Shown: positions 305 through 44,408, numbered from the stretch's first letter. The stretch: DNA of 59,136 bases from Candidatus Nomurabacteria bacterium (GCA_943357975.1 CALRGS010000001.1:1-59136), one strand, 5' to 3'. Numbers and translations: made by a program. Notes: a model not told the origin generated them from the sequence alone.

Positions 305-940
305 ATGAATACGCACGAGTTATTAAAAAAAATCGAACAGGAATCCCTCTCCCTTGTCTGGTGGAAAGACGAGCAAAAAGCTCGTGGAGAAGATGTTGTG
401 AATGACCCCAAAAAAGGCGAGCGTCCTTGGATCATTCCTGAAACCACTGGGCAGTTTTTGCATGACGTGATACTGAAGAATAATTTTAGTTCTGCATTAG
501 AACTAGGAACCTCTATTGGTTATTCAACCATTTGGATCGCCGATGCCTTGTCGCAGAATAATGGGAACGTTCACACTATTGAGCACTCCTTAAATAAAAT
601 TCCTGTAGCAAAAAAATATTTCCAAGAATCAGGCTTTGAAAAAATAATTACACTCCATGAAGGAAACATCTTGGCTATCCTTGAACAATTTCCCAGTGAC
701 CTTACTTTTGATTTCGTATTCATGGACGCAGATCGTGGACACTATCACGAATACTTCCCACTCATCAAAAAACACCTTCGTGAAGGTGCAATTATCATTG
801 CCGACAATGCAGGAAATATGAACACCCGCATGCAACCGTTTTTTGATTTGTTACAACAAGAAGGTGTGGCTTTTGAGATTTTGAATATGGATAACGGACT
901 TTTAATTACTGGTGGTTACCGATCCGGTGGTACGTCATAA
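305..940 (+). CDS. class I SAM-dependent O-methyltransferase (family 3, YrrM/TrmR-like)
   Basis: ORF 95..940 trimmed to ATG 305, 1 nt after the rlmH stop. Contains ELGTSIGYSTIW (SAM motif I) and FVFMDADRGHY. Confidence 0.75.
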   Translation: MNTHELLKKIEQESLSLVWWKDEQKARGEDVVNDPKKGERPWIIPETTGQFLHDVILKNNFSSALELGTSIGYSTIWIADALSQNNGNVHTIEHSLNKIPVAKKYFQESGFEKIITLHEGNILAILEQFPSDLTFDFVFMDADRGHYHEYFPLIKKHLREGAIIIADNAGNMNTRMQPFFDLLQQEGVAFEILNMDNGLLITGGYRSGGTS

Positions 941-2631
941 TAGTTAATCAAGAATTTCGCAAAATCAACGAATGGGAGCAACAGGGTGTCCGATGAAAAC
1001 TTCGCACCATTTTTGGGATGATAGTTATAGAGAAAAACAATAAACTTTGGATTTTGTGCTGGAAAATACGCCATGAACGTATGCAGATTTCTGTCATCGT
1101 AATACCCACCGTTCTCATGATCCGCAATCTGCGCGGTTCCTGTTTTTGCAGCAATTGAATAGTGCTCCAGTTTTATTTTCCCATCATTATAATTATCAAA
1201 CACCGTGGTCAGCATTTTTGTAATCGTTACAGCCGTTTCAGGTTTAATGAGCTGTCCTGTCACCGGCCATTCCATTTTTTTATGAATACCACTTGGATAA
1301 TCAATTTCGGAAACAAGGTGTGGTGTCACCAAACGACCACCATTGGCAAGGACTGCCTGCGCACGAAGCATTTCAATCGGTGAAACAGCAACCCCTTGTC
1401 CAAATGATACGTTGGCAAATTCTACATCACGATTCGTACCAAGGTTTGAAATGAGCCCCTTGGTCTCTGCCGGCAAATCAATACCTGTTCGTTCACCAAA
1501 TCCAAAAGATTCCCACTGTTTGCGAAAAGCCTCTTTTTGCATGCGCTGCATCACATGCACCATTCCTGTGTTCAATGATTGATTTAATACGCTCTGCATA
1601 GTCACATTATTTCCACGACCTTTTTTATCGAAGTTATAAATAGTCCTGTTCCCCACTTTTACAAACCCTGCGTCGTTATAGGTTGTTGTTGGTGTCACCA
1701 TGCCCTGATCCAGAGCAATAGCCATAATCACCGGTTTCATAATAGAACCCATTTCAAAATCACTTTCGATCAGTGGGTTATTAAATTGAGATACGTTGGT
1801 CACACTTCGTGTTTGATTTAAATCAAATCCATTATCAAGCCCCATGGCAATGATCGCCCCTGTTTTCGGATCCATGACAATACCTCCGGTTCGATCAGAG
1901 TTCCACTTTTCCTTAACGGCATCAAGCATCTGTTCAAGGCTTTTTTGAACAGATGGTTCGATAGTGGTAACTACGTCACCTTCAATTTCATCAGCATCCC
2001 CTACTAATTTACTAATATCAGTAAAAATTTCAGCAAAGAAGTTTACATACAATTTTTGGTCTGTACGCGCAAGTACTTTGTTATAGGAGTGTTCAATCCC
2101 ATAGCGTCCAGAAAAATCATCCCCTTTGAACCCCATGAATCCGATTGCGTGTGCGGCTAAATCCCCGGCAGGATAAAAACGCCAGTTCATACGATAAGCA
2201 GTCACTCCGGGTAGTTTCATTGCTGTAATTTGTGAAGCTGCAGATTCGGGAACATTTACTGCAATTTCCACATACGGGTCTTTTTTCTTGGTTACTTGAG
2301 TAATGAATGTGTCATGGTCAAGTCCAAGAATTTTTCCAATTTTTGTATAGGCAGCTTCTGGGTCACCTAAGGTAATCGTGCTTACTGCGATTTTAAATCC
2401 TGACTTAACCGTTGCTGCAGAAACCTGATTACCATCCTTGCTAGTAAAATAAATACTTCCTCGATCAAAGAGGTTTGAACTATTTGTTACATACTGTCGG
2501 TCAGCTAGCATTTCATACTGTCGCCCATGAATAATTTGTAAATAAAAAAGCTTAGCGATAAAAATCACTACGGCAAAAACAACCAGCCCACTTACCAAAT
2601 ACAGTCGTTTTTGAGAAAAATTCGAATCCAT
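916..2631 (-). CDS. ftsI: penicillin-binding protein 2 / FtsI-type peptidoglycan D,D-transpeptidase
   Basis: 571 aa with an N-terminal TM helix. Has SxxK (GSIMKP), SxN (SLNTG) and KTG (KTGTA) motifs and sits in dcw-cluster context. Confidence 0.85.
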   Translation of the reverse strand: MDSNFSQKRLYLVSGLVVFAVVIFIAKLFYLQIIHGRQYEMLADRQYVTNSSNLFDRGSIYFTSKDGNQVSAATVKSGFKIAVSTITLGDPEAAYTKIGKILGLDHDTFITQVTKKKDPYVEIAVNVPESAASQITAMKLPGVTAYRMNWRFYPAGDLAAHAIGFMGFKGDDFSGRYGIEHSYNKVLARTDQKLYVNFFAEIFTDISKLVGDADEIEGDVVTTIEPSVQKSLEQMLDAVKEKWNSDRTGGIVMDPKTGAIIAMGLDNGFDLNQTRSVTNVSQFNNPLIESDFEMGSIMKPVIMAIALDQGMVTPTTTYNDAGFVKVGNRTIYNFDKKGRGNNVTMQSVLNQSLNTGMVHVMQRMQKEAFRKQWESFGFGERTGIDLPAETKGLISNLGTNRDVEFANVSFGQGVAVSPIEMLRAQAVLANGGRLVTPHLVSEIDYPSGIHKKMEWPVTGQLIKPETAVTITKMLTTVFDNYNDGKIKLEHYSIAAKTGTAQIADHENGGYYDDRNLHTFMAYFPAQNPKFIVFLYNYHPKNGAKFSSDTLLLPFVDFAKFLINYYDVPPDR

Positions 2632-2651
2632 TATGTGGGAATTATACCATA
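2587..2651. repeat. ftsI promoter plus first 15 codons; master copy of the repeat found again at 3941..4005
   Basis: About 65 nt, near-identical to 3941..4005 with about 4 mismatches on reading. Confidence 0.85.
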
Positions 2652-2673
2652 GCTTTTAAGTTATTGAGGAAAA

Positions 2674-2704
2674 CAAAAAAAGGGAGCCGCAGGGGCTCCC
2701 TTTT
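2674..2704 (-). terminator. intrinsic terminator after the 2710..3807 gene
   Basis: GGGAGCC(2682-2688)/GGCTCCC(2694-2700) hairpin followed by a T-run on the minus strand. Confidence 0.7.
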
Positions 2705-2709
2705 AAAAA

Positions 2710-3807
2710 TCACTTTTTCTTCTTAGCTAAACTCTCCCTTAAATTTAATCGGCATTTCTCATAACTCTCCATAAAATTTATGGTCTCTGTGTTGCTTACC
2801 TCTTTCGCCCTGCGGGTAAAAATTTGAGCCATAGTATGATTCTCGGTCATCATCTTTCTGATAAATCTAAGCGAGGAAAATTTCTTTCCCCCTTTAATTT
2901 CTTCAGCAAGCGAATCACGAAAATCTTTATGGCTTACCCACATAATTTTATTATGAATTGCAAGGCTTGAATGTACAAACATTACCCCTTGTGGCGCAAT
3001 AGCATAGTCCTGAATATCATAGGGACTGAAAGGAAACAGTGAGTACATTTGGTCAATGGACGCCTTCAGAGTATCCGGCAGCTTCTTGGCGGTAATCATT
3101 CGATTATTAAGAGATATGGTTCTCTTCTTCTTTGTTCCCTTAAGGTGACTATTGTAGTAACGACCATCTGGCTGGTCTTTTACCAAAGCCATATGTTTAA
3201 CGTTCTTGGTAAATTCTTCTACCAAACCTTTCACAAGAGCAGTATCAGCTGCAAATACTTGAGGAAGGGTCTCATCATACAATTCCGACTTAATAAGGTT
3301 CGAACGAAGAGTTACTTGTATTTCACGATATTGTGATTTAAAGTGCCACGCAGCTATTGCCTGATTAATCTGACGAATCAAATTAATCTCGGTTTCTGAA
3401 ACAACTGGCGAGGTTGGCACAATAGAATACCCAATGACTTTTGGAGTCATCTTGTACTGAGCAAGAAAATTCTGAATATCGTCTGCAAATTTTTGAGTAT
3501 TCCCTTCCAATCTTATTGATTTGTTCGTAGTAAACCTTGTCATCTTTATTATTTCAGGATGATTAAGAACAGGTATAAGGTTAAAAGTGGAAGAGAGATG
3601 TAAATCATAGCGATCGCTCGCATTTTTGAGCGCACTTTCCAAAATAGAAAATGTTTGCTGTACTTCCGGATCAACAACTGTTGCGGTAACCGGAGTGCCT
3701 TTATTAGCAAGCGGACAAGGCGGACAGCCCTGGTCACAGCTTTTGGATGCAGCGAATATTTCTATACTAATCTCGTCAAAAGCGGGTCTGGATTTTTTCT
3801 TTGCCAT
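2710..3807 (-). CDS. hypothetical protein with an N-terminal CX3CX2C motif (SCDQGCPPC); inserted in the dcw cluster
   Basis: 365-aa ORF with its own TTGACA-17-TAATGT promoter (3845..3873) and its own terminator. No confident family match from reading. Confidence 0.65.
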   Translation of the reverse strand: MAKKKSRPAFDEISIEIFAASKSCDQGCPPCPLANKGTPVTATVVDPEVQQTFSILESALKNASDRYDLHLSSTFNLIPVLNHPEIIKMTRFTTNKSIRLEGNTQKFADDIQNFLAQYKMTPKVIGYSIVPTSPVVSETEINLIRQINQAIAAWHFKSQYREIQVTLRSNLIKSELYDETLPQVFAADTALVKGLVEEFTKNVKHMALVKDQPDGRYYNSHLKGTKKKRTISLNNRMITAKKLPDTLKASIDQMYSLFPFSPYDIQDYAIAPQGVMFVHSSLAIHNKIMWVSHKDFRDSLAEEIKGGKKFSSLRFIRKMMTENHTMAQIFTRRAKEVSNTETINFMESYEKCRLNLRESLAKKKK

Positions 3808-3844
3808 TTTATTTTATGTTTTTGTGGTTCAATAATTTTTTTCT

Positions 3845-3873
3845 ACATTACTCTATAAAAAGACTTTTGTCAA
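3845..3873 (-). promoter_or_regulatory. predicted sigma70-type promoter of the 2710..3807 gene
   Basis: Minus strand reads TTGACA(3868-3873), a 17-nt spacer, then TAATGT(3845-3850). Confidence 0.55.
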
Positions 3874-3876
3874 GTA

Positions 3877-3905
3877 ACAAAAACCCCTCTTCCAGGGGGT
3901 TTTTG
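3877..3905 (-). terminator. copy of the ftsL-downstream terminator
   Basis: CCCCT/AGGGG hairpin flanked by A- and T-runs, near-identical to 4706..4733. Confidence 0.65.
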
Positions 3906-3919
3906 AATAGTATTTAAAT

Positions 3920-3985
3920 TTACCGCACCAACGCCACGATCCCACTTACCAAATACAGTCGTTTTTGAGAAAAGCTTGAATCCAT
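3920..3985 (-). pseudogene. chimeric 21-codon remnant ORF: ftsI codons 1-15 fused to the last 6 codons of the ftsL-like gene (MDSSFSQKRLYLVSG|IVALVR)
   Basis: Translation of the reverse complement. It keeps an intact TGtTATAAT-N9-ATG promoter copy and is followed by the terminator copy. Confidence 0.7.
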
Positions 3986-4016
3986 TATGTGGGAATTATA
4001 ACATATCTTCTCAAAC

Positions 4017-4050
4017 AAAAATCCCCCGTCTGGTGAGTTGGGGGATTTAA
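4017..4050 (-). terminator. intrinsic terminator after the 4067..4654 gene
   Basis: ATCCCCC(4021-4027)/GGGGGAT(4040-4046) hairpin followed by a T-run on the minus strand. Confidence 0.7.
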
Positions 4051-4066
4051 AATTCTTAGAACTTCG

Positions 4067-4654
4067 CTAGTTTGCACGGACAGTTTGTACCACAATCTGT
4101 TTTGGTGAAAGAGCTTGTGATAATTTTTTGAAAAGTTTCTTGACCTTACTTGTTTTCGGGGGCTTGGGTGTACAAGATAGTAAGTAAAGAAAGCAGGTTA
4201 CAAAAATCCAATGAATCATTCCAGCAACAATCGCAATATTGTCTATGAGGCTTTCACTATTAATTGGAGGCATGTTCATAATCATATAAACCAAAAACAC
4301 AATCACCGCTAAGCACATGAACAAAAAAAATATTCTTCCGGGCATCATTGAGACCTCCAAATTATTTCTGGATGTTTTGTTTTCAAAACATTGTTGCTCT
4401 ATTGCGTCAACTACTGCAGAAAAAATACGTACACACATAAAACCGATTGACGTAAAAATTATAGTAATTATTATTTTTACCATAGAACTATATATTGGTA
4501 AGAAAAAGATTAAACATACTATAAATGCACTGATCAAGGACGCAACTACGAGAGATAACCGAGCGAGCCAAAAGTTGTTTACTCCAACCAGGTCTTGAAA
4601 GAAATCAGAAAATGCTTGAAATTTCCCCAAAAGGAATCTGTCGATTGTTTTCAT
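4067..4654 (-). CDS. hypothetical polytopic membrane protein (about 5 TM); inserted in the dcw cluster
   Basis: ORF 4067..4702 trimmed to ATG 4654. The listed TTG start is itself the TTGACA -35 of a TTGACA-17-TGaTAATAT promoter (4674..4702). Confidence 0.65.
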   Translation of the reverse strand: MKTIDRFLLGKFQAFSDFFQDLVGVNNFWLARLSLVVASLISAFIVCLIFFLPIYSSMVKIIITIIFTSIGFMCVRIFSAVVDAIEQQCFENKTSRNNLEVSMMPGRIFFLFMCLAVIVFLVYMIMNMPPINSESLIDNIAIVAGMIHWIFVTCFLYLLSCTPKPPKTSKVKKLFKKLSQALSPKQIVVQTVRAN

Positions 4655-4673
4655 AAGTGTTTTGTTTAGTGCT

Positions 4674-4702
4674 ATATTATCACAGGTAATATATTCTGTC
4701 AA
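4674..4702 (-). promoter_or_regulatory. predicted promoter of the 4067..4654 gene
   Basis: Minus strand reads TTGACA(4697-4702), a 17-nt spacer, then extended -10 TGaTAATAT(4674-4682). Confidence 0.55.
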
Positions 4703-4767
4703 GAAACAAAAACCCCTCTTCCAAGGGGTTTTTGTTATAATGTGTAGTTTTACCGCACCAACGCCAC
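4697..4767. repeat. master copy of the ftsL 3' end, terminator and -35 repeat (partner 3868..3937)
   Basis: tgtcaag.aacaaaaacccctcttcca.ggggtttttg...tttaccgcaccaacgccac is shared by both copies. Confidence 0.85.
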
Positions 4768-5070
4768 CGTATCCGCATCGGGATGTGTATAGGCAAAAGT
4801 CGGAGTCTTTGATTCTACGAACCCAAGGGCTGCCGCCTTTTGAATATCAATACTTGAAGCAAGGTTAAAGTATTTAATTTCCAAATCAGAAACTTTGGCT
4901 TGTGAAGTCCTCACTTCAGAATACAGTGTCTTTCGCTGATTAATCGCCACCACCGAACGTGCAATGAAAAATGAATACAGCGCAAACATTCCTACCAATG
5001 CCATTAGTAAATACCGGTTCCATGAACCAGAGAAGATATTTTTTATTGGATTGGTAATGATGTGTTGCAT
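4750..5070 (-). CDS. FtsL-like single-pass cell-division protein, assigned by position
   Basis: 106 aa with one N-proximal TM helix followed by a coiled region, immediately downstream of rsmH. Confidence 0.6.
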   Translation of the reverse strand: MQHIITNPIKNIFSGSWNRYLLMALVGMFALYSFFIARSVVAINQRKTLYSEVRTSQAKVSDLEIKYFNLASSIDIQKAAALGFVESKTPTFAYTHPDADTVALVR

Positions 5071-5083
5071 ATATTTTTATTGA

Positions 5084-5134
5084 CCCTCTCCACGATAGTG
5101 GAGAGGGTGGTTTCCGTAAGGAAACCGGGTGAGG
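5084..5134 (-). repeat. REP-like hairpin element, family A, copy 1 (between rsmH and the ftsL-like gene)
   Basis: CCCTCTCCAC-GATA-GTGGAGAGGG, then TTTCC-GTAA-GGAAA, then CCGGGTGAGG. Matches 10785..10833 and 44353..44408 in inverted orientation. Confidence 0.8.
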
Positions 5135-5135
5135 A

Positions 5136-6029
5136 CTATTGGGAGATCTTTTCAAGAACTCGTAACTGGGCACTTCTCGCTCTTACGTTCTCCTTAACTT
5201 CCTCATCCGTCGGTTTGATTGGTTTTTTTGTAATCAAGGTCGCAAGGTCTGCATGTGCCTGATCACGGAAGAAATTTTTTACAATACGGTCTTCCCCACT
5301 ATGGAACGTAATGATTGCAAATCGTCCTCCTGGTTTTAATGCTGCAAACCCTTTCACTAACACCTCCTTCACAGCTCCATATTCATCATTCGTTGCAATG
5401 CGCAGTGCTTGAAATGTTTTCGTGGCAGGATTCGTGCGCATCCAAGCCTTCCTTGGGAGCACTGACTCAATCACTGCGACTAAATCAAAGGTGGTATTTA
5501 TTGGCTTACGTTTACGTTCAGCGACAATGGTGCGGGCAATTTTTCGAGAAGCCGTCTCGTCAGCATACGCGTACAACATGTCCGCAATAACATTTTCATC
5601 CCACGTGTTCACAATATCCCAAGCAGTAATATCCTCGTCTGTCGGATTGTCTTTCAATGTCATATGGAGAGGTCCATCGACTTGGAAAGAAAATCCTCTG
5701 TCTGGATCGGCAATCTGAAATGATGACCATCCTAAGTCGAGAAATATCCCATCAACTTGTTCGATATTGTTTTCAAGCAATACCTGATCAAGCTTTCTAA
5801 AATTTTCTCGAACTAATATTTTTTTACAAGGAAACGTTTTAAGTTTTTCCTCTGCACGAGTAATGGCATTCGAATCCAGATCGAAACCAATCAATGTCCC
5901 ATCTGGCCCCAAATGCTCCGCAATTGCTGCAGCATGACTCGCACCACCTAATGTACCGTCGATATAGACGCCATTTTTTTTGATACTCAACACGTCTATT
6001 GATTCTTTGAATAGTACTGGGATATGCAT
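5136..6029 (-). CDS. rsmH: 16S rRNA (cytosine1402-N4)-methyltransferase RsmH
   Basis: 297 aa with HIPVL..DGTLGGASH..LDLGWSS motifs; follows mraZ. Confidence 0.9.
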   Translation of the reverse strand: MHIPVLFKESIDVLSIKKNGVYIDGTLGGASHAAAIAEHLGPDGTLIGFDLDSNAITRAEEKLKTFPCKKILVRENFRKLDQVLLENNIEQVDGIFLDLGWSSFQIADPDRGFSFQVDGPLHMTLKDNPTDEDITAWDIVNTWDENVIADMLYAYADETASRKIARTIVAERKRKPINTTFDLVAVIESVLPRKAWMRTNPATKTFQALRIATNDEYGAVKEVLVKGFAALKPGGRFAIITFHSGEDRIVKNFFRDQAHADLATLITKKPIKPTDEEVKENVRARSAQLRVLEKISQ

Positions 6030-6030
6030 A

Positions 6031-6465
6031 TTAGATCATGCCAATGTCTGCTAATTTCTGAGCAAGGACATTTGCTTCTTTTTCTACGCCGTTGGTGTAC
6101 TTGTTCCAAGATTCTTCATTCCACAATTCAATGCGATTATGAATTCCTGCAACTACAACTTTTGTAGAAAGGTCTGCGTACCCTTTGAGGTGATCAGGAA
6201 CGAGCACTCGCCCACTTCCATCCACTTCAGTTTCGGTAGCACCTCCTAACATCGCACGTGAAAATCCACGCCCTTCTGCAGAACCAATCGAAAGACCTGC
6301 TAATTTTTCTGAAAACTTTTTCCATTCGGATACCGGGTACACAAAGAGACAACGATCGAGACCTCGCGTAATAATTATTTTTTTGCCCATCTCTTTGCGA
6401 AATTTCGCAGGGAGAGATAAGCGATTCTTGTCGTCCATGGTATGGCGATATTCTCCGATAAGCAT
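6031..6465 (-). CDS. mraZ: transcriptional regulator MraZ
   Basis: ORF 6031..6588 trimmed to MLIGEYRHTMDDKNRLSLPAKFR (typical MraZ N-terminus), giving 144 aa. The upstream extension is built from a repeat element and operator-like boxes. Confidence 0.85.
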   Translation of the reverse strand: MLIGEYRHTMDDKNRLSLPAKFRKEMGKKIIITRGLDRCLFVYPVSEWKKFSEKLAGLSIGSAEGRGFSRAMLGGATETEVDGSGRVLVPDHLKGYADLSTKVVVAGIHNRIELWNEESWNKYTNGVEKEANVLAQKLADIGMI

Positions 6466-6478
6466 AAGTTTTTTAGAC

Positions 6479-6530
6479 CAATCTCCCTCTTTTAGAGGGA
6501 GAGCCTCAGCGATAGCTGGGCGTGGGAGTA
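6479..6530 (+). repeat. REP-like hairpin element, family B, copy 1 (mraZ 5' leader)
   Basis: ATCTCCCTC-TTTA-GAGGGAG..CAGCGATAGCTG..GGGAGTA, alignable with 35699..35750. Confidence 0.75.
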
Positions 6531-6590
6531 ATCCCACTTCATCCCACCACAATAGTACCTCATCCCACCTTGTAACACAATCACCCAATA
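6531..6590 (-). promoter_or_regulatory. candidate MraZ operator: four phased (G)TGGGA/TGGGT boxes upstream of mraZ
   Basis: On the plus strand, CCCA cores sit at 6533, 6543, 6564 and 6584, a spacing of 10, 21 and 20 bp. E. coli MraZ is known to bind TGGGN direct repeats with a 10-bp period. Confidence 0.5.
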
Positions 6591-6622
6591 TATGCCTTTC
6601 TGTGGATAAGTATTTTTTCCAA

Positions 6623-6652
6623 CAAAAAAGCCAGGTGGTCCTGGTTTTTTTT
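6623..6652 (-). terminator. intrinsic terminator after rplU
   Basis: CCAGG-tggt-CCTGG hairpin followed by a T-run on the minus strand. Confidence 0.6.
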
Positions 6653-6654
6653 AA

Positions 6655-10784: not shown

Positions 10785-10833
10785 CCTCACCCGGCCGCAC
10801 GTACTCCCACCCTCTCCACTATCGTGGAGAGGG
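10785..10833 (+). repeat. REP-like hairpin element, family A, copy 2 (dnaJ 5' leader)
   Basis: CCTCACCCGG..CCA-CCCTCTCCAC-TATC-GTGGAGAGGG. Confidence 0.8.
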
Positions 10834-44352: not shown

Positions 44353-44408
44353 CCTCACCCGACTCCCTTCGGGAGCCACCCTCTCCACTATCGTGGAGAG
44401 GGGTGAGG
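44353..44408 (+). repeat. REP-like hairpin element, family A, copy 3 (complete; between nusB-Nudix and rnc)
   Basis: Outer stem CCTCACCC/GGGTGAGG enclosing CTCCC-TTCG-GGGAG and CCCTCTCCAC-TATC-GTGGAGAGG(G) hairpins; ends 10 nt upstream of the rnc ATG. Confidence 0.8.

Follow-up and report, generated by a model that had tools for sequence, protein, structure and literature searches.

In the minimal mobile elements of Neisseria, different whole genes lie between two fixed conserved genes in close relatives, no mobility genes are present, and natural transformation with homologous recombination in the flanks is considered the means of exchange (PMC3787668). Homology-facilitated illegitimate recombination, described for S. 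pneumoniae, A. baylyi and P. stutzeri in cases made and selected in the laboratory, pairs one homologous anchor with one join of 3-10 bp, adds DNA and leaves a chimeric junction (PMC6382021). Campbell-type merodiploids and tandem duplications with join points carry direct repeats that flank each unit and allow resolution to either single-allele form, and integron cassette arrays hold promoter-proximal cassettes of a single open reading frame (ORF) in series at one site. Here we analyze a locus that shares features with all of these, the gap between ftsL and ftsI in the division and cell wall (dcw) cluster of a 59,136-nt stretch of DNA from Candidatus Nomurabacteria bacterium (GCA_943357975.1, CALRGS010000001.1:1-59136; hereafter the window, meaning the whole stretch), whose closest genomes are Candidatus Saccharibacteria metagenome-assembled genomes. 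In this gap two alleles of one gene slot, an X-type allele and then a Y-type allele, appear to stand head to tail in tandem, which would make the window genome merodiploid for the slot.

As in the minimal mobile elements, different whole genes occupy the space between two fixed conserved genes in close relatives, no mobility genes were seen in the ORFs sampled, and the sequences suggest a similar route of exchange. The flanks here are, however, two division genes of a Patescibacterium dcw cluster, the slot promoter is shared, and one genome carries two tandem alleles together with a visible illegitimate junction. The scar resembles that of homology-facilitated illegitimate recombination, but it comes from a natural genome, and the 'foreign' DNA would be an alternative allele of the same locus, both flanks being partly duplicated as a result. 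As in Campbell-type merodiploids, each unit lies between direct repeats, so that either single-allele form could be regained; unlike there, the repeats are only ~70 nt long and 9-15% diverged, and no vector or circular replicon is evident. In contrast to integrons, no IntI was found among the ORFs scanned and no attI or attC, and each ORF has its own terminator. A literature search returned no report of a variable ftsL-ftsI slot in Patescibacteria. The locus is thus a new example of known recombination processes in an unusual place and lineage.

Anatomy and reality of the tandem

All genes of the block are read on the minus strand, in the order mraZ, rsmH, ftsL-like gene, X, junction, Y, ftsI:

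6031..6471, minus strand: mraZ (Pfam MraZ, E 5.9e-35)
5136..6029, minus strand: rsmH (mraW; Pfam Methyltransf_5, E 2.7e-94)
4750..5070, minus strand: ftsL-like gene, 106 aa
4067..4654, minus strand: X, cargo ORF, 195 aa
2710..3807, minus strand: Y, cargo ORF, a 365-aa soluble protein
916..2631, minus strand: ftsI, class B penicillin-binding protein (Pfam Transpeptidase, E 1.9e-67, and PBP_dimer)

MraZ, RsmH and the class B penicillin-binding protein were matched by family models in dcw order, and this order is kept in ~70 related loci. The ftsL-like gene stands between rsmH and ftsI in every relative examined; neither the window's 106-aa protein nor its counterpart in L005 (L numbers denote loci and contigs used for comparison) had a Pfam match at E values up to 10 when tested for FtsL/DivIC membership, and the gene is named ftsL only by its position, its size and a bitopic architecture read by eye. 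The initial annotation had placed two unrelated, separately punctuated genes in the gap, and both the ORFs and their hairpins were recovered, with genes, repeats, chimeric ORF and promoter box at the positions it gave.

Between X and Y lies a junction of 138 nt, in which a copy of the ftsI promoter and 5' end (B') is joined to a copy of the ftsL 3' end (A'):

4697-4767, minus strand: repeat A, the last six ftsL codons, stop codon, terminator hairpin and TTGACA -35 box
3936-4009, minus strand: repeat B', a copy of the ftsI extended -10 promoter, the ATG (3985) and ftsI codons 1-15/16
3934..3943, minus strand: breakpoint zone of the illegitimate ftsI'-'ftsL join, from alignment with the ftsI and ftsL alleles of the window, L010 and L003
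3920..3985, minus strand: chimeric ORF of 21 codons, MDSSFSQKRLYLVSG followed by IVALVR, giving MDSSFSQKRLYLVSGIVALVR, read from the sequence and ending at the copied ftsL stop
3868-3937, minus strand: repeat A', a copy of the ftsL 3' end, terminator and TTGACA
2582-2655, minus strand: repeat B, the ftsI promoter (TGgTATAAT, 2649..2641) and first ftsI codons

The description of this junction as a chimeric ftsI'-'ftsL scar was borne out by alignment. B' is 91% identical to B over 74 nt, with exact runs of 33 nt (3941-3973, equal to 2587-2619) and 23 nt, and A' is ~85% identical to A over ~70 nt, with one indel and two exact runs of 19 nt. In motif searches each repeat element occurs exactly twice in the window (shuffled sequences expect 0), and A/A' and B/B' are the two longest direct repeats of the entire 59 kb. 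The chimeric frame runs across the join as ATG..GGG ATC GTG GCG TTG GTG CGG TAA and is preceded by TGtTATAAT (4003..3995) and nine bases before its ATG; this ORF and the duplicated promoter and terminator are probably by-products. At the join, a GTGG microhomology (3937..3934) is present in both parents, in ftsI codons 16-18 (CTT GTG GTT, L010-type) and in ftsL (ACG GTG GCG), and reads GGG ATC GTG GCG in the junction. Its length fits the 3-10 bp of homology-facilitated illegitimate recombination.

The window derives from a metagenome and single-allele forms occur in other samples, as would be expected if coexisting ftsL-X-ftsI and ftsL-Y-ftsI strains had been concatenated by an assembler. Logan contigs, assembled independently for each sequencing run with k=31, speak against such an artefact. 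One of them (L002, SRR8561391) is 100% identical to window 3970..2587 and spans the B'/A' junction, and two others (L001 from SRR8561390 and L092 from SRR8561391) reproduce window 5110..3980, that is, ftsL-X-B'. Moreover, a separate 26,952-bp ENA contig carries the same four genes in the same order and spacing. The check by re-assembly proposed with the initial annotation thus finds repeats and junction persisting both in independent k=31 contigs and in a second contig-level assembly. In addition, the two junction halves share only ~4 nt, which leaves no graph path between them, and B' and A' each have substitutions of their own that B and A lack; this virtually excludes a mis-join of two strains. 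L002 begins and finishes with one identical 30-mer, so that the de Bruijn graph closes the 1354-bp unit into a loop, as expected because the 33-nt exact repeat bounds the unit. The tandem X-junction-Y arrangement is confirmed not to be an assembly artefact; strain concatenation is largely refuted and keeps only a very slight probability.

At window position 4001 (compare 2647), the variable base of TGnTATAAT in B', L001 and L092 have G on the coding strand, which is B's base, where the window has T; these contigs end at 3980 and 3990, a few bases before the 33-nt repeat. Gene conversion between B and B' may explain the difference and the contig ends, as may heterogeneity of the population near B'; these features of the contigs would suit an artefact.

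Slot states and punctuation in relatives

To compare the distance from rsmH to ftsI, ~70 Saccharibacteria and Patescibacteria loci were recovered with FtsI. In nearly all of them the end of rsmH and the start of ftsI are 250-515 bp apart, leaving space for ftsL only; the exceptions are L034 (671 bp, with no convincing ORF in the gap), L004 (700 bp), L003 (974 bp) and the window (2508 bp). This comparison, which had been suggested as a check, indicates that the gap was ancestrally empty and that it is occupied only in the narrow clade of the window. Seven states were distinguished there, in agreement with the earlier view of the gap as a hotspot, among relatives with 71-92% FtsL identity and the more distant L005 (56%):

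empty: L098, L099/L100, also L005
74-aa membrane protein: L004
135-aa protein: L003
187-aa protein, X-like: L101, L102 and L103 (three samples)
365-aa protein, Y: L010
373-aa protein: L097
195 aa and 365 aa (X and Y): the window

Both alleles of the window have single counterparts. L010 is laid out as one unit of ftsL, terminator, TTGACA promoter, Y (83% identical to the window's Y), terminator, ftsI promoter and ftsI. The 187-aa protein of L101-L103 is homologous to X over its full length (36% identity, E 2e-33), and the tails at the N- and C-terminus are conserved. The single-allele relatives have neither internal repeats nor scars, and the idea of allelic segments thus gains scar-free ftsL-Y-ftsI and ftsL-(X homologue)-ftsI examples. 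Homo-allelic tandems (X-X or Y-Y) were absent from the relatives examined.

The slot states are scattered over the ftsI and rsmH-ftsL trees, and the window, L010, L097 and L003 form one subclade that holds four different states. In ftsI, the initial 1 kb places the window together with L097 and L010; on the left flank the relationships form a star, and the window agrees with L003 in one local patch. The mosaic ancestry of ftsI indicates that recombination is active at the locus. In L003, ftsI (2549-4264) is split into two ORFs (2549-3298 and 3305-4264), through either an assembly frameshift or stop-codon error or pseudogene formation.

The promoters and terminators of the gap are as follows:

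4697..4767 (within), minus strand: terminator hairpin in A, after ftsL, -19.6 kcal/mol
4674..4702, minus strand: slot promoter before X, TTGACA, 17 nt, TAATAT, TG upstream, 10/12 matches
4017..4048, minus strand: terminator-like hairpin after X; the surrounding 55 nt (4008-4062) fold at -17.2 kcal/mol, z -2.7
3868..3937 (within), minus strand: terminator hairpin in A', -14.2 kcal/mol
3845..3873, minus strand: slot promoter before Y, TTGACA, 17 nt, TAATGT, kept in L010 and in L003 (other cargo)
2678..2704, minus strand: terminator after Y, 11-bp stem, -18 kcal/mol

The folding energies of the four terminator-like hairpins lie between -14 and -20 kcal/mol. The promoter before Y has a perfect -35 box and a -10 box matching at 3/6 positions, and was not listed by the promoter scan. 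All cargo-bearing alleles share an alignable left flank made up of the terminator, TGTT(A)C, TTGACA, 17 nt and a TAATnT-like -10 box, and the promoter therefore belongs to the slot, the exchangeable unit being approximately the ORF with its terminator. Accordingly, the claim that each cassette has its own promoter holds in that a TTGACA-17-(-10) promoter precedes both X and Y, but not in that it is the property of the cargo. TGTTA, considered as a 5-nt target duplication on both sides of the cargo and a trace of the first insertion, was dropped as too short against chance.

The right flank, TATGnTATAAT-N9-ATG, is common to all alleles, the empty ones included. In the latter a terminator hairpin is already present in the gap (47-60 nt), as is a TGnTATAAT-like box that precedes the ftsI ATG by ~9-20 nt; in L098, for instance, the gap reads TAA-aaaaaccaaaggaaccctttggtttttt-ATGTTATAAT-N9-ATG. 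Terminator and box were found in L098, L099, L005, L012 and L013. The transcriptional break before ftsI is therefore ancestral, and the earlier proposal that ftsI acquired its own promoter as a consequence of the insertion has to be given up; instead, the ancestral break probably made the gap a tolerated insertion site. The extended -10 box ends 9 nt before the ftsI ATG in the window (2629-2649) and at the equivalent places in L003, L004, L010 and L097-L101, with no Shine-Dalgarno-like sequence. This short distance and the missing Shine-Dalgarno-like sequence suggest that the ftsI mRNA may be leaderless, or nearly so, across the clade. X and Y likewise lack obvious ribosome-binding sites.

Single ORFs bounded by hairpins, with a fixed promoter reading into the slot much like the integron Pc, are also what a dedicated site-specific, integron-like cassette system would look like, its recombination sites being the repeats. 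However, the hairpins after ftsL, X and Y are ordinary terminators of unrelated sequence, the repeats are pieces of ftsL and ftsI coding sequence, and single-cassette relatives have no repeats. No recombinase, transposase or integrase was found among the slot-flanking genes and the larger window ORFs sampled; the neighbours are mraZ, rsmH, ftsL, ftsI, a methyltransferase, L21, CorA and CysS, and both the genes beside the slot and the other large ORFs sampled have housekeeping roles. We regard such a system as extremely improbable, and even jointly with an assembly artefact it would account for at most a very small part of the probability.

Origin of the tandem

We consider it probable that the two alleles met in one recombination event with one illegitimate join, and prefer a linear, one-sided form of this event. 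The slot would comprise the terminator after ftsL, the slot promoter, one exchangeable ORF with its terminator and the ancestral extended -10 promoter of ftsI, and, once DNA has been taken up, homologous recombination in the conserved flanks would swap the ORFs between strains. In the event that gave rise to the tandem, homologous recombination would have been one-sided, with a long anchor in ftsL and the genes upstream of it, or in ftsI, and the other end of the incoming linear DNA would have been closed by an illegitimate microhomology join, as in homology-facilitated illegitimate recombination. This join would have fused ftsI codon 15/16 of one allele to the sixth-from-last ftsL codon of the other, around GTGG. 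Only products with both division genes intact, presumed to be essential as in other bacteria, would have survived, and we propose that this is why the scar holds just six ftsL codons and ~16 ftsI codons.

The divergence between repeat copies (9-15%) is of the same order as that between strains (~15%), and A' hardly differs from the ftsL flanks of L010 and L003, the window's own A, beside X, being the outlier. Both observations therefore argue for the meeting of diverged alleles and not for a recent duplication in situ. Cultivated Saccharibacteria are naturally transformable via ComEC and integrate linear DNA by homologous recombination (PMC10633639). This competence, the mosaic flanks and the incongruence of cargo states with the core tree point to cargo exchange by transformation; from them we infer the route, and the exact event and the resident allele have a similar, inferential standing.

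Several points weigh against this reading. The competence of the window's lineage is extrapolated from cultivated Saccharibacteria. No sampled donor is near the X allele of the window, the only X homologue being the 36%-identical one, and sliding-window identity and informative-site counts did not clearly set a resident side apart from a donor side. In the scar, codon 16 (ATC) is unlike the ftsI codon (CTG, CTT, TTG) and the ftsL codon (ACG) of all sampled relatives; because it fits neither parent, the breakpoint can be placed only to within ~6 nt. B' is a mosaic, the 33 nt beside the junction being equal to B and the X-proximal part differing from it (TCAAGC versus TCGAAT, together with the promoter differences). 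This pattern hints at a crossover or gene conversion inside B and would fit two other origins at least as well, Campbell-type integration and tandem duplication followed by replacement, which would also lead to the same final topology as homology-facilitated illegitimate recombination.

In the Campbell-type origin, a fragment from the ftsL 3' end through Y to the ftsI 5' end, or its X equivalent, would have been circularised and integrated by a single crossover within the short B or A. This yields exactly the observed topology, and identity of B and B' over the 33 nt by the scar, with differences on the X-proximal side only, is the expected trace of a crossover inside B. The closed loop of the 1354-bp unit in the de Bruijn graph would suit a circular intermediate as well, but is equally expected from a chromosomal tandem. 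Such an origin requires two rare steps, circularisation at a 4-nt microhomology and a crossover in at most 74 nt of ~91% identity; DNA entering by transformation is single-stranded and linear, no replicon is evident, and no integrase was seen in the ORFs sampled. We consider it unlikely.

Alternatively, the whole slot could have been duplicated in tandem by an illegitimate ftsI/ftsL join between sister chromosomes, the cargo of one copy being exchanged later for a different allele by homologous recombination. Tandem duplications mediated by microhomology are common, and a B' that is identical to B distally and diverged proximally is compatible with a crossover inside B' during replacement of the left copy. 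However, two independent events are required, and the second crossover would have to be confined to at most 74 nt (B') or at most 70 nt (A'), since long ftsL or ftsI arms would replace the whole tandem. Furthermore, A' is L010/L003-like over its whole intergenic length and A is not, and the X-X or Y-Y tandems that duplication could leave were not encountered in the relatives. This origin, too, seems improbable to us, and one-sided recombination of linear DNA with a single illegitimate join remains the preferred reading.

Cargo proteins, other variable sites and significance

X contains four hydrophobic segments, taken by eye as membrane helices, and has no family match in Pfam, NCBIfam, PADLOC or PHROGs; the same resources gave nothing usable for Y and for the cargoes of L003 and L004. 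A word-indexed protein search returned no relatives of X, and its classification as an orphan proved wrong in view of the homologue in the slot of L101-L103. When this search labels a fast-evolving small membrane protein an 'orphan', the label is not to be relied on.

The family of Y is small and uncharacterised, with 71 representative clusters, and its members elsewhere are stand-alone genes in unrelated neighbourhoods. In its CxxxCxxC motif, which agrees with the cluster-binding motif of the radical SAM superfamily, C24 and C28 are invariant and C31 is present in at least 90% of 46 family members; R236 and H279 are also invariant. Structure prediction from 3 sequences was useless (pLDDT 38), and an alignment of 46 sequences was used instead, which gave an AlphaFold2 model with pLDDT 94 and pTM 0.92. 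The family profile found nothing among PDB sequences, and Foldseek with the model found nothing convincing in the PDB (best E 0.012, TM at most 0.27) and weak radical-SAM matches only in the viral models of BFVD (E 7e-4, TM 0.26). Radical-SAM proteins lead the fold matches, but their TM-scores reach only 0.26-0.29, and the Radical_SAM profile PF04055 matches one of the 46 family members weakly (E 0.13). It is a reasonable guess from these comparisons that Y is a divergent iron-sulfur (Fe-S) or radical-SAM-like enzyme, and it may represent a novel Fe-S enzyme fold variant.

The dcw block stops at ftsI (916-2631). The 3' end of this gene overlaps by ~25 nt with a convergent O-methyltransferase gene (95-940), which stands in place of murE, mraY or the other genes usual there. 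An Rfam scan of the entire window found no RNA family. A 27-nt palindrome, CCACCCTCTCCACTATCGTGGAGAGGG, has three copies in the window, at 5081-5107 (between rsmH and ftsL), 10807-10833 and 44376-44402; a similar hairpin lies at the same rsmH-ftsL place in L010, and the palindrome may be a terminator or a repetitive extragenic palindromic (REP)-like element.

A second variable slot lies upstream of mraZ (window 6472-6654). The window and L005 have no gene there between L21 and mraZ, and other relatives have one to three unrelated genes, including one for a MutS_V-domain protein in L101:

3564-4923: upstream-of-mraZ slot in L004
2393-3540: the same slot in L098
2549-3644: the same slot in L099
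911-3672: the same slot in L101
85-1376: the same slot in L097

L21 is annotated on its far side in L004, L098 and L101; the fetched stretches of L097 and L099 do not contain L21.

It is conceivable, though in our judgement doubtful, that the ftsL-ftsI gap is a selected 'plug-in' expression slot with a fixed promoter and a swappable ORF, whose cargo is traded by transformation and whose tandem genome is metastable. If so, strain-specific membrane or Fe-S proteins would modulate division, the envelope or host/phage interaction, and the X+Y heterozygote would resolve via the 33-nt or 19-nt repeats to either allele, giving population-level switching. X and Y represent two uncharacterised cargo families, and the fold of Y is confidently predicted, without a solved relative. 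The locus provides a clean natural example of gene-content change in ultrasmall, mobile-element-poor Patescibacteria, in which an illegitimate join is kept as a scar. The mraZ-rsmH-ftsL-ftsI block can tolerate foreign genes where a terminator and a promoter already insulate the gap, and for the engineering of Saccharibacteria the slot is a candidate for a neutral expression site that has a native promoter.

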